This document shows, in pieces, positions 48,849-49,542 of a stretch of 64,000 nt of DNA. Every line of letters begins with the position of its first letter. Within the stretch, counting starts at the first letter, position 1. The position numbers and the translations under genes were made by a program. Source of the stretch: an uncultured Clostridium sp. (GTDB lineage: Bacteria > Bacillota > Clostridia > TANB77 > CAG-508); assembly GCA_947087745.1 (NCBI GenBank), contig CAMUDX010000003.1:1412-65411 (forward strand), written 5' to 3'. The notes under the pieces were generated by a model that saw only the letters and a list, made by a program, of their open reading frames with translations, was not told where the DNA came from and made no database searches.

Positions 48849-48887
48849 AGCAAAAGGCACTACCTATTACTGGTAGTGCCTTTTGCT
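48849..48887 (-). terminator. strong intrinsic terminator hairpin after the Spo0A-C-like gene
   Basis: AGCAAAAGGCACTACC-TATTACT-GGTAGTGCCTTTTGCT forms a perfect 16-bp stem. Confidence 0.65.
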
Positions 48888-48912
48888 GACAGATTACTTA
48901 ATTCTCGGAAAC

Positions 48913-49467
48913 TTATTTCAAGTTCAGCCGTATGTGTTCCGCCGATTTCGCAATGAATTCGCCGTTAGTAGGATTTCCTTTGTTCGAATCTACTACAAGA
49001 CCAAATATTTTTTGCTGAAATCCGAAGTTTCCTTTGTTCCATGCAACCTCTATTGCACTTTTTATCGCTCGTCCTACCCCTGTTGGAGATGTTTGGTGAT
49101 TTTTAGCAATTGTCGGATACATTAATTTTGTTATCATCGATATGCAGTTAAAATCATTAATGCCCATGATTATAGCATCAATCAGGTAGCTATACCCTCT
49201 AATATTCGCAGGAACTCCTATGTCCCGAAGATAGTCACGTACTATTATCTCCAGATTATGTGTGGTCAATTTCTCCCTTTCCGTTGCTAAATTACTCGCT
49301 ACCTCTGTCTCTAAAGAAGCAGAAACATCATCACCTTCTGCTTCTTCAGTAGATACCTCTGACTGCAAGTCGATTTTTTTCAACAAGCAATCGATTTTTT
49401 CTTCTACCCGCTGCAGATGTTGCTCTAAACCTTTCAGCTGATTATTAAGTTGTTCTTCTAGTGTCAT
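48913..49467 (-). CDS. receiver-less Spo0A C-terminal (DNA-binding) domain protein with N-terminal coiled coil
   Basis: IIVRDYLRDIGVPANIRGYSYLIDAIIMG..ITKLMYPTIAKNHQTSPTGVGRAIKSAIEVAWNKGN..KGNPTNGEFIAKSAEHIRL parallels the Spo0A effector domain (IGVPAHIKGY..LYP.IAK....T.S.VERAIRHAIEVAW..G....KPTNSEFIA). The start was chosen at MTLEEQ after an AGGAGG RBS. Confidence 0.8.
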   Translation of the reverse strand: MTLEEQLNNQLKGLEQHLQRVEEKIDCLLKKIDLQSEVSTEEAEGDDVSASLETEVASNLATEREKLTTHNLEIIVRDYLRDIGVPANIRGYSYLIDAIIMGINDFNCISMITKLMYPTIAKNHQTSPTGVGRAIKSAIEVAWNKGNFGFQQKIFGLVVDSNKGNPTNGEFIAKSAEHIRLNLK

Positions 49468-49513
49468 GTCATTTCCTCCTGTTCTTGGCTCTTTGCCGTT
49501 TTTTAACATAATG

Positions 49514-49542
49514 ATTATACCATAACGTGTTATTTTAGTCAA
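49514..49542 (-). promoter_or_regulatory. consensus sigmaA promoter of the Spo0A-C-like gene
   Basis: Minus strand reads TTGACT-17 nt-TATAAT with TGG at the extended -10 position (..ATGGTATAAT). Confidence 0.6.

Follow-up and report, generated by a model that had tools for sequence, protein, structure and literature searches.

The 64-kb stretch of DNA analysed here (the window) encodes a 184-aa protein that is shown below to be a phosphorylation-independent paralog of the effector domain of Spo0A. Sequence comparison supports its gene as accessory cargo of an excisable, non-phage element lodged in the sporulation gene yabG. We give roughly an even chance to the proposal that this presumably constitutively expressed, receiver-less Spo0A_C cassette would supply the element with a helix-paired, kinase-independent regulator acting at Spo0A-type sites. 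The features concerned are listed in Table 1.

Table 1. Position, strand and supporting evidence of the features of the yabG element and the Spo0A_C cassette
Feature	Position in window	Strand	Evidence
yabG 5' fragment, ORF reading into element, then stop	52049..52540	-	Peptidase_U57 1-168/280, E=2.7e-36
Left junction core CATGATG, yabG 5' part / element	52087..52093	-	7-mer common to both junctions; L029
ECF-type sigma factor, element cargo	51447..51995	-	Pfam Sigma70_r2, Sigma70_r4_2; NCBIfam sigma70-ECF superfamily
Membrane-anchored beta-propeller protein, element cargo	49556..51457	-	Pfam Beta_propel E=1.7e-153
SigmaA-type promoter, TTGACT (49542-49537), 17-nt spacer, TGgTATAAT (49522-49514)	49514..49542	-	6.4-kb scan
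RBS AGGAGG, 7 nt before ATG	49475..49480	-	Sequence reading
Receiver-less Spo0A paralog CDS, 184 aa, ATG start	48913..49467	-	Pfam, phmmer, AlphaFold2, Foldseek
Amphipathic heptad helix, residues 3-37, putative coiled-coil dimeriser	49357..49461	-	AlphaFold2, heptad score, 7-residue indel
Acidic disordered linker, residues 38-68	49264..49356	-	AlphaFold2
Spo0A_C effector domain, residues 69-183, six helices	48919..49263	-	PF08769 full profile; Foldseek 1FC3/1LQ1
Helix alphaD, HTH recognition helix, residues 128-145, motif GVGRAIKS	49033..49086	-	Alignment, 284 sequences
Hairpin terminator, separating cassette from recombinase operon	48849..48887	-	Arms, folding energy, compensatory change
38-aa ORF, AAGGAGG RBS, 14-nt overlap with recombinase start	48674..48790	-	Cross-locus conservation
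Large serine recombinase	46951..48687	-	Pfam Resolvase, Recombinase, Zn_ribbon_recom; PHROG 95 integrase E=2e-87
Right junction core CATGATG, element / yabG 3' part	46874..46880	-	7-mer common to both junctions; L029
yabG 3' fragment	46512..46871	-	Pfam Peptidase_U57 163-275/280, E=6.9e-41

Results

The complete Spo0A_C profile (Pfam PF08769, positions 1-104 of 104) aligned to residues 76-179 of the protein with E=5.5e-32 and 110 bits against a cut-off of 25, and phmmer comparison with PDB sequences returned ungapped matches to 1LQ1 (E=1.2e-27) and 1FC3 (E=2.4e-27). AlphaFold2 modelled residues 69-183 with pLDDT >90, and Foldseek superimposed the model on both structures with TM 0.88-0.95 and rmsd 1.2-1.7 A. 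PF08769 was the sole Pfam family detected in the protein, with no match to the receiver family PF00072. The NCBIfam equivalog for canonical Spo0A, TIGR02875, scored 128.4 bits against a cut-off of 200 and was matched only over positions 129-259 of its 262, and in the model a helix and a disordered linker (residues 1-68) take the place of the receiver. The profile search and the predicted fold thus bear out a sequence-only reading of this DNA, which had described a clear Spo0A_C domain without its phospho-receiver.

The same reading had replaced the receiver with a coiled coil of about 75 aa. A heptad helix is indeed predicted, but it covers 35 residues (3-37, pLDDT 77-87) and gives way to an acidic, disordered linker of about 31 residues, for which AlphaFold2 assigned no secondary structure and pLDDT <50 over residues 36-65. 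The helix has clean 3-4 hydrophobic heptads, with a score of 0.95 that was equalled in none of 300 shuffled sequences. One allele group has an insertion of exactly 7 residues, and the heptad register is kept; the linker is the most indel-rich stretch of the allele alignment. Other receiver-less relatives are tandem fusions of 2-4 Spo0A_C domains (P0004, P0026-P0042), which supports the need for a substitute for receiver-mediated dimerisation.

The promoter of the gene matches 11 of the 12 consensus positions, carries the extended -10 TG and was the top site of a 6.4-kb scan in which no other site had more than 9/12 positions plus TG. It is conserved at the loci L004, L007 and L024, and the 5' UTR is nearly invariant among the three loci aligned (window, L004 and L007). 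Perfect 16-nt arms (48849-48864 and 48872-48887) form the terminator hairpin (-28.6 kcal/mol, z = -6.6), in which L007 has one compensatory change, from A-U to G-C. The AGGAGG RBS, near-perfect sigmaA promoter and 16-bp terminator picked out in the sequence-only reading therefore all held up. These signals show the gene to be a self-contained, monocistronic cassette. Its strong sigmaA-type promoter, RBS and terminator are all its own and are kept while the CDS between them diverges.

The cassette lies in an element of 5.2 kb with five ORFs, which encode an ECF sigma factor, a beta-propeller protein, the Spo0A_C protein, a 38-aa product and a large serine recombinase. The sigma factor scored 75.8 bits against the NCBIfam sigma70-ECF superfamily (cut-off 42.9). 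Its gene is overlapped by 11 nt by that of the beta-propeller protein, whose translation has a hydrophobic N-terminal segment and which is possibly the anti-sigma partner of the sigma factor. The 38-aa ORF had no family match in PHROG or NCBIfam, but it is 87-89% identical (aa) between allele groups and 100% identical between L007 and L024, and it is among the genes called in L001, L004 and L024; we infer that it is a candidate recombination directionality factor (RDF). The right junction lies 70 bp from the recombinase gene. Pfam and PHROG searches of the element gave no phage structural or replication genes.

An intact yabG was present on a metagenomic contig, L029, where the junction reads ...ACAGGGCATGATG|GGATGATAAAG and the flanks are joined exactly. 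This contig shares 99.9% identity with the L007 and L024 flanks and encodes an intact 271-aa YabG (P0322, 98% identity); its source could be either an element-free strain or mother-cell DNA after excision. As judged by comparison of these junctions, the element is shown to split yabG and to be able to leave an exact empty site. The earlier description of the gene as cargo of a sporulation-gene intervening element is consequently confirmed by the split yabG, the CATGATG core at both ends and the empty site. The window also contains the sporulation gene yabQ in addition to yabG, and the annotation of the syntenic locus L007 includes spoVG, bofA and veg. No second Spo0A homolog occurs in the 64-kb window; two NCBI proteins considered as the host's own Spo0A were set aside, as they come from other assemblies.

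The sequence-only reading had further judged gene, RBS, promoter and terminator to form a G+C-richer block that suggested separate acquisition. Computed values agreed with this for the CDS and hairpin, to which the richness is limited (gene GC 0.387 and GC3 0.351, vs. GC 0.23-0.32 and GC3 0.12-0.21 in neighbouring genes), but not for the promoter plus 5' UTR, with a GC of 0.28. Protein composition does not impose this richness, since the Spo0A_C genes of L017 and L019, both in low-GC genomes, have GC3 values of 0.19-0.21; that of L017 (GC 0.273, GC3 0.209) matches the composition of its host. The anomaly is real and gene-specific, given that the Spo0A_C genes of further low-GC genomes have the composition of their hosts, and on these compositional grounds a foreign origin is plausible. 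A relic whose G+C content is still decaying was not supported: GC-to-AT and AT-to-GC changes in the gene are balanced, and its equilibrium GC3 is 0.33 vs. 0.15-0.24 in its neighbours. The four element variants agree in carrying the gene, in its position and in its promoter and terminator. A recent acquisition was therefore rejected, and any separate acquisition predates the known variants.

Between alleles, the Spo0A_C CDS has 57-66% aa identity, compared to 83-99% for the rest of the element. The alleles are mosaic, and they diverge within the CDS only, the flanks on both sides being conserved. L007 and L024 differ at 22 sites, all of which fall within the Spo0A_C gene of otherwise identical strains. 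Allele comparison thus showed this CDS to be the fastest-changing part of the element, and it behaves like a cassette that can be replaced while its flanks stay conserved. By its substitution pattern the gene is under selection, with an omega of 0.50-0.56 that is significantly below 1 (bootstrap upper bounds 0.76-0.85); distance arithmetic gave approximately 0.47 for the C-domain on the window branch. Neighbouring genes have omega values of 0.02-0.33, and an omega of 0.5 is high enough that the gene may often be dispensable. For L007 vs. L024 alone, the Nei-Gojobori omega was 1.9; this was non-significant (p = 0.18-0.34), and we claim the clustering of changes but not positive selection. A target of a diversity-generating retroelement was also rejected, since the 22 differences involve all four bases; neither a reverse transcriptase nor a repeat of the variable region was found in the element. 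Neither two IMG/VR scans nor searches of JGI metagenomes with a 5' UTR pattern and with a profile recovered further copies of the element.

The effector domain is 45% identical to that of B. subtilis Spo0A without gaps, shares the six-helix fold of the canonical structures and retains R214, AIEVAW, the PTN-EF motif, G227, F236 and V240 (B. subtilis numbering). Apart from the missing receiver and phospho-acceptor, the protein differs from canonical Spo0A in that its gene lies inside yabG instead of the recN-spoIVB locus, and in a set of surface residues. The window allele carries R211G, E213G, R217K and H218S in alphaD as well as K246N, so that the helix reads V-G-R-A-I-K-S vs. the canonical V-E-R-A-I-R-H. 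Among 284 single-domain sequences, ERAIRH occurs in 272, and both E213 and R217 in 283, with the window allele as the sole exception at each position. Sister alleles retain the canonical VERAIRH helix. Zhao et al. 2002 reportedly found that E213, R214 and R217 of Spo0A read bases. The loss of E213 and R217 makes canonical 0A-box binding by the window allele doubtful; going by its helix, this allele probably has a weakened or altered site preference and is probably not a faithful 0A-box binder. The 0A-box binding proposed earlier would thus fit the sister alleles but is doubtful for the allele on which it was proposed. In the alphaE region, which contacts sigmaA in Spo0A, the clade-specific motif G-N-[FL]-x-F-Q-Q replaces the canonical one, so that activation through sigmaA should not be assumed.

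Discussion

Receiver-less Spo0A_C proteins on mobile elements are of an already known kind, and what is new here is the carrier. Truncated spo0A homologs have been described on gut phages (Schwartz et al. 2023, mBio, PMC10294663), and PF08769 is reported to be enriched on mobile elements of gut Firmicutes (ImmeDB preprint, bioRxiv 10.1101/214213). In agreement, we found hundreds of receiver-less Spo0A_C clusters, many of them chromosomal and others on phages, and approximately 114 of the best 120 profile matches were Spo0A_C-only proteins. The sequence-only reading had called the combination of a master-regulator mimic and a sporulation-gene intervening element unusual. The abundance and publication of receiver-less Spo0A remove any rarity on that side, but its pairing with such an element appears to be undescribed.

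The protein resembles the phage and mobile-element homologs in having an effector without a receiver in a complete ORF on a mobile element of a probable spore-former, and the same logic, independence from host phosphorylation signals, is proposed for them. One phage example from IMG/VR (L012, 164 aa) likewise has a short helical N-terminus followed by Spo0A_C. The window allele departs from these homologs in its non-canonical recognition helix and in its carrier, the 5.2-kb element in a sporulation gene, without phage genes. Searches of IMG/VR, INPHARED and PLSDB recovered no orthologs of the window Spo0A_C clade. Fourteen INPHARED matches were rejected as cases of phage carriage: each of the four examined (H1, H2, H5 and H6) is a full-length spo0A that includes the receiver and comes from an 'UNVERIFIED' virome scaffold, with scaffold GC of 39-61%. 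Of the six PLSDB matches, two are unannotated; by annotation alone, the others are spo0A genes of large replicons or of mis-typed chromosomes and were not accepted as plasmid copies.

The nearest relatives by profile score are chromosomal proteins of gut Clostridia (P0237, P0272, P0311), which are also Spo0A_C only and of similar size (approximately 175 aa). However, these have a conserved N-terminal module, KDNEKxYKILxDLMxAxKEFQIMITVP, instead of the heptad helix, together with host-like G+C content and a canonical ERAIRH helix. Their context is also ordinary, P0237 lying directly after recN and spoIVB.

As for the carrier, intervening elements of sporulation genes include skin in sigK (PMC5025042), SPbeta in spsM (PMC4191935), gin in gerE (PMC5595907) and yin in yabG (PMC10747680). 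In the element described here, as in these cases, a mother-cell sporulation gene is interrupted, a large serine recombinase is encoded near one end, both junctions have an identical short core, and the gene is restored precisely. Like gin, the element lacks phage genes, and like yin it targets yabG, although the gene table of yin extends to approximately 48 kb compared to 5.2 kb here. Its cargo differs from theirs in being regulatory, comprising the ECF sigma factor with its partner protein and the Spo0A_C protein; a Spo0A-like gene is reported in none of the papers on such elements that were consulted.

In the mechanism that we propose, two chains would be paired by the modelled N-terminal heptad helix, and the flexible acidic linker would let the two Spo0A_C domains occupy adjacent DNA sites. 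Helix pairing and linker would together replace the phospho-dependent dimerisation that the receiver provides in Spo0A. The passages of PMC3485338 on the isolated DNA-binding domain of Spo0A describe binding to genuine targets without phosphorylation. Made in growing cells without kinase input, the protein would regulate by binding DNA at Spo0A-type sites, where it may partly switch on or block the Spo0A regulon and so shift the timing or frequency of host sporulation. The hairpin terminator would shield the downstream operon of the small ORF and the recombinase from this constitutive transcription. Counting against this mechanism are the altered recognition helix of the window allele, the clade-specific alphaE surface, the variants resembling loss of function described below and the search of the element for target sites, which gave no convincing 0A box. 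Perfect 0A boxes are absent from the window-allele element, and the single one in the 64-kb window, at 3721, is outside it; in L007 and L024 one perfect TGTCGAA occurs, inside the Spo0A_C CDS.

Alternatively, the protein might bind operators inside the element itself, for example at its own promoter or near the small-ORF/recombinase operon, in the manner of an immunity or maintenance repressor, and the rapid change in its recognition helix would then reflect operator-specificity switches between element variants. We regard this as unlikely, although several observations point in its direction. A near-0A box, TGTCAAA, is located just downstream of the -10 in L004, L007 and L024, where the helix is canonical, and is disrupted (TGTT-AAA) in the window, where the helix is altered. 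Additionally, the confinement of divergence to the CDS and the mosaic alleles resemble the swapping of specificity modules, and Spo0A_C-containing phage families without known function exist (PHROG 24603 and 37855). However, the co-variation of box and helix amounts to one event, and matches with one mismatch are expected by chance at 27% GC. This box is the sole promoter-proximal near-match and is mismatched at the key, binding-critical G, for which the section of PMC3485338 on G5T gives an approximately 10-fold loss of affinity, and no conserved 0A-like box was found between the terminator and the 38-aa ORF. Perfect 0A boxes are absent from the window-allele element, and the single one in the 64-kb window, at 3721, is outside it; in L007 and L024 one perfect TGTCGAA occurs, inside the Spo0A_C CDS.

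An attenuated or decaying copy is a similarly improbable explanation of the window allele. Here, the fold would be kept while specific DNA binding was lost, leaving the protein inert or capable of protein contacts only, such as titration of sigmaA or a Spo0A partner, and the ancestral cargo would have been active but costly. A constitutively active Spo0A fragment is reported in the sad67 literature to be harmful to growing B. subtilis, which makes selection to blunt such a gene plausible. The unique absence of E213, R217 and H218 from the window allele, together with R211G and K246N, would fit such a history, as would the elevated omega relative to neighbouring genes. Variants resembling loss of function also occur among the sister alleles: P0317 and P0320 have a frameshifted C-terminus, and P0198 has R214L with G227R. 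Against this, the ORF, consensus promoter and RBS are intact, omega remains significantly below 1 and similarly low on the window branch, the domain is modelled with high confidence, and R214 and the remainder of the helix (AIEVAW) are kept. Moreover, three separate sequencing runs yielded the identical 184-aa protein, so the allele is present in at least three independent ones. Samples carrying the element include those of the studies behind SRR11195276, SRR13251499 and SRR27311149.

It is rather doubtful, and we hold it only tentatively, that the CDS is a hypervariable, exchangeable specificity cassette that retunes sporulation or conflict control, with GVGRAIKS as a functional change of target site and not decay. 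If so, the conserved promoter and terminator flanks would let recombination swap or import alleles, and selection would keep altering the DNA-reading and partner-contact surfaces of the master-regulator mimic. The parties to such a conflict could be element variants, phages and the host, with control being either escaped or imposed.

Very improbable, finally, is a role of the Spo0A_C protein as the RDF of the element, its coiled-coil helix docking on the coiled-coil/zinc-ribbon of the recombinase and so activating attL x attR excision in the mother cell: large serine recombinases need an RDF for excision (PMC12286644, PMC5025042), so the five-ORF element must encode or borrow one, and the putative free coiled-coil helix and the structural diversity of the class noted in a passage of PMC10747680 would allow it, but the promoter is of a vegetative consensus type, the strong terminator insulates the gene from the recombinase, constitutive production would lose the element, the protein diverges far faster than the recombinase that it would have to fit (85-96% aa identity between alleles), its complete, well-folded DNA-binding domain would be left unexplained, and the 38-aa ORF, translationally coupled to the recombinase, is a better candidate.

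To return to the proposed kinase-independent regulator at Spo0A-type sites, work on the receiver-less Spo0A domains of phages and mobile elements has so far consisted of cataloguing without experimental tests. The unusually simple setting of a five-gene element with a monocistronic cassette, together with the natural contrast between alleles with and without the canonical helix, makes this a good first system for asking whether proteins of this class activate sporulation, inhibit it or have some other effect. The element is also a second, compact and non-phage intervening element in yabG and amends a statement in the yin report (PMC10747680), the sole publication on this topic, that no other yabG insertion was known at the time. 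The restriction of variation to the CDS suggests that the activity of the Spo0A_C protein matters to fitness in the gut. If the protein does tune spore formation, it would bear on the transmission and persistence of gut Clostridia.

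Results

The 184-aa product of the element gene is an intact, selected Spo0A effector domain that lacks a receiver and is tethered to an N-terminal heptad helix by a flexible linker. The sequence-only reading had proposed a Spo0A_C domain without a receiver, and both profile and structure comparisons agreed. The full Pfam Spo0A_C profile aligned to residues 76-179 (E=5.5e-32), no receiver domain was found in the protein, and the NCBIfam Spo0A equivalog model matched with its C-terminal half only, at 128 bits where the cut-off is 200. The protein aligned without gaps (E about 1e-27) to 1LQ1 and 1FC3, the crystallised B. 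subtilis and G. stearothermophilus Spo0A effector domains, and an AlphaFold2 model with pLDDT above 90 over residues 69-183 superimposed on them with a TM of 0.88-0.95 and an rmsd of 1.2-1.7 A. The N-terminus had been taken for a coiled coil of about 75 aa. The model retains a single helix at residues 3-37, but residues 38-68 form an acidic disordered linker. Hydrophobic residues in the helix are regularly spaced by 3-4 positions (L7, L11, L14, L18, V21, I25, L28, I32), a heptad regularity matched by none of 300 shuffles of the same residues, and one allele group contains an insertion of exactly one heptad, as a coiled-coil constraint predicts.

The gene has a private consensus promoter and terminator, and the expression signals first noted from the sequence alone were all recovered. 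The promoter (TTGACT-17-TGgTATAAT) was the top-scoring match of the 6.4-kb region scanned, an AGGAGG ribosome binding site lies 7 nt from the ATG, and all 16 pairs of the terminator hairpin are perfect (-28.6 kcal/mol, z = -6.6), with a compensatory pair change in one relative. The entire block had also appeared G+C-rich. When computed, this was true of the coding sequence (GC 0.387, GC3 0.351, vs. GC3 of 0.12-0.21 in every neighbouring gene) and the hairpin, but not of the promoter and 5' UTR (GC 0.28). Equilibrium GC3 estimated from third-position substitution counts was 0.33 for the Spo0A_C gene vs. 0.15-0.24 for its neighbours; the odd composition is being maintained rather than eroded.

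The Spo0A_C gene resides on an excisable element that splits yabG, a sporulation protease gene, with five ORFs in the same orientation between the two yabG parts. Joining the element ends at the CATGATG cores yields ...ITGHD/GMIKK... (slash at the join), which is normal YabG sequence. A search with the reconstructed YabG identified an intact 271-aa YabG (P0322) with 98% identity to the query. The contig that encodes it, L029, matches the flanks of two contigs with the element at 99.9% identity and reads ACAGGGCATGATGGGATGATAAAG across the predicted join. The intact yabG and predicted join on L029 thus define the 5,213-bp unit as a discrete element, which some DNA molecules of this lineage either lack or have lost by excision. 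An uninterrupted yabG is also present in sister species (YabG identity 84-86%).

Features of the yabG element and of a second region of the window
Feature	Position	Strand	Remark
yabG 5' part	52049-52540		Peptidase_U57 profile positions 1-168
Junction core CATGATG	52093-52087
Element ORF 1			ECF sigma factor
Element ORF 2			membrane beta-propeller protein; overlaps sigma gene
Span first noted	48849-49542	-	terminator through -35 hexamer of Spo0A_C gene
Element ORF 3	48913..49467	-	Spo0A_C gene (CDS), 184 aa, receiver-less
Element ORF 4	48674-48790	-	38-aa ORF, MKIQYIIEHIYPKSINDKETKEIICKKIARIMKNNENK
Element ORF 5			large serine recombinase
Junction core CATGATG	46880-46874
yabG 3' part	46512-46871		Peptidase_U57 profile positions 163-275
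Membrane ORF	21741-22196	-	151 aa; beside tRNA-Trp
Xre-like HTH ORF	22322-22540	-	small
Xre-like HTH ORF	22797-23033	+	small; divergent from preceding

No phage genes were found in the element (window 46874-52093), and it is closer to gin, a 'non prophage(-like)' insertion in gerE (PMC5595907), than to yin. The latter, from C. botulinum, is the only yabG insertion so far described, and its authors found no other in public data (PMC10747680); the genes tabulated for it extend to about 48 kb, whereas the present element occupies 5.2 kb. The 38-aa ORF is conserved and basic, has a strong ribosome binding site, overlaps the recombinase start codon region and matched no family. Upstream of it, an AT-rich stretch hardly varies among the three aligned loci (window, L004 and L007). 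This ORF is the most plausible candidate for the element's recombination directionality factor (RDF).

Three further alleles (P0002 on locus L004; P0003/P0175 on L007, with 202 aa from its true start at 9899; and P0198/P0315 on L024) are each carried by this element inside yabG, in the identical position. Only one GTDB species representative, an uncultured 'Clostridia bacterium' MAG, carries the gene, and the suggested search for phage and plasmid homologs of the element clade yielded none in IMG/VR, INPHARED or PLSDB, nor were any found in JGI metagenomes. Divergence and omega were compared over four allele groups in total. Protein identity across the four loci is 57-66% for the Spo0A_C gene and 83-100% for flanking and other element genes; the L007 and L024 Spo0A_C proteins share 91%. 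The trough in nucleotide identity is the coding sequence itself, and promoter, 5' UTR, terminator and 38-aa ORF hold at 88-100% between loci. Omega for the gene is 0.50-0.56, significantly below 1, with neighbouring genes at 0.02-0.33.

The alleles are mosaic, with an N-terminal half common to the window and L004 and a C-terminal half common to L004 and L007. L024 equals L007 over ~4.1 kb upstream and ~750 bp downstream of the coding sequence, within which 22 positions differ; the chance of such clustering is (622/5470)^22, about 1e-21. Omega for this pair is 1.9, which is not significant, and we do not claim positive selection between them. Over the 3'-terminal 1.2 kb of the recombinase gene (window 46894-48090), L024 is ~100% identical to the window copy and 87-93% to L007. 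Since the remainder of L024 is like L007, element variants recombine with one another; the hot spot is most simply read as such exchange, with breakpoints falling in the conserved flanks. A DGR-like mechanism was excluded because the L007/L024 substitutions involve all four bases. Natural variants among the L024-type alleles (P0317, P0320, P0198) have either a frameshift that deletes the final helix or the pair R214L and G227R, and some populations may carry an inactivated gene.

Elsewhere in the window, the 151-aa membrane ORF (GC 0.386, GC3 0.36) matched no Pfam family and is followed by two Xre-like ORFs; the region (21549-23033) may be a remnant of another integrated element. Rfam at gathering thresholds reported two tRNAs only over window 1-64000. 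Aminoacyl-tRNA synthetase genes in the window comprise those for Ile, Cys, Ser and Glu and one class II enzyme; in Firmicutes, such genes usually have T-box leaders.

Discussion

The rarity of this protein class was overestimated at first, as receiver-less Spo0A_C proteins are very common outside the element clade. A full HMMER scan returned 7,446 clusters at E<=1e-3; among the best matches, many are 130-200 aa long with an N-terminal extension of 45-90 aa and others have 2-4 tandem Spo0A_C domains. About 114 of the best 120 matches to a profile of the element alleles were Spo0A_C-only proteins. The relatives P0237, P0272 and the L017 copy are chromosomal: P0237 directly follows recN and spoIVB, a neighbourhood that is the usual spo0A locus, and the other two sit among housekeeping genes. 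A genuine viral contig of 42 kb carries the L012 copy. P0237 (L025 10001-10534), P0272 (L027 10001-10522) and about 100 related clusters form a large receiver-less family of ~175 aa whose members have a conserved N-terminal stretch in common (KDNEKxYKILxDLMxAxKEFQIMITVP) and are found at ordinary chromosomal loci in Clostridia with 44-49% GC. The tandem proteins, with 2-4 domains and no receiver, include P0026-P0042 and P0004 (L021 8001-8768); the latter has a canonical spo0A gene directly downstream. Full-length Spo0A with a receiver occurs in four 'Bacteriophage sp.' records (L008-L011: MT835781, MT835504, MT836771, MT836727), probably bacterial DNA in virome assemblies, and basing 'phage spo0A' counts on such records would inflate them. 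Published work already describes truncated spo0A on gut phages (PMC10294663) and enrichment of PF08769 on mobile elements of gut Firmicutes (bioRxiv 10.1101/214213); therefore, the architecture belongs to a known kind, and the novelty lies in the carrier, a compact yabG intervening element.

Helix alphaD, the established HTH recognition helix (Lewis 2000, Zhao 2002, cited in PMC3485338), reads S-R-V-E-R-A-I-R-H in Spo0A and T-G-V-G-R-A-I-K-S in the window protein. In B. subtilis numbering (offset +81), among 284 single-domain Spo0A_C sequences, both receiver-less and full-length, the window allele is the sole exception at positions 213 (G; E in 283) and 217 (K; R in 283), and it has S at 218 (H in 279) and N at 246 (K in 275). 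VERAIRH is kept in the three sister alleles, although P0198 has R214L. The sequence-only reading, a constitutive protein acting at 0A boxes (TGTCGAA), is reasonable in outline. However, judged by these residues, canonical 0A-box recognition by the window allele is doubtful, and this allele may be less active or directed to a different target.

Even unphosphorylated, the Spo0A DNA-binding domain on its own binds genuine targets (PMC3485338). In the general mechanism that we propose, and consider about evenly balanced between right and wrong, the receiver-less protein would be produced in growing cells and dimerised by its N-terminal helix, in place of the phospho-dependent dimerisation of the receiver; in the tandem-domain relatives, fusion would serve the same end. 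It would then occupy Spo0A-type sites, in mimicry of or competition with Spo0A~P, and the terminator would shield the excision operon from its constitutive transcription.

The protein could instead be an element-internal or immunity-like regulator, which we regard as unlikely. A near-0A box, TGTCAAA, lies just 3' of the -10 in L004, L007 and L024, the canonical-helix alleles, and the same columns in the altered-helix window allele (49503-49512) read TGTT-AAA. This disruption is a weak lead for such a regulator; the co-variation of box and helix is a single case and could have arisen by chance. It is similarly improbable that the window allele is simply attenuated or decaying. An RDF role for the Spo0A_C protein is highly improbable in view of its vegetative promoter, the terminator 3' of its gene and the better placed 38-aa ORF. 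No spo0A of the host's own was located in the 64-kb window or by candidate look-ups. That the element gene is the host's only copy is very unlikely, because the element is missing from the otherwise 99.9% identical L029 and every known spore-former has full-length Spo0A (bioRxiv 10.1101/2022.02.25.481979). The cassette-like hypervariability of this gene and its unique recognition-helix variant make it a worthwhile experimental entry point.
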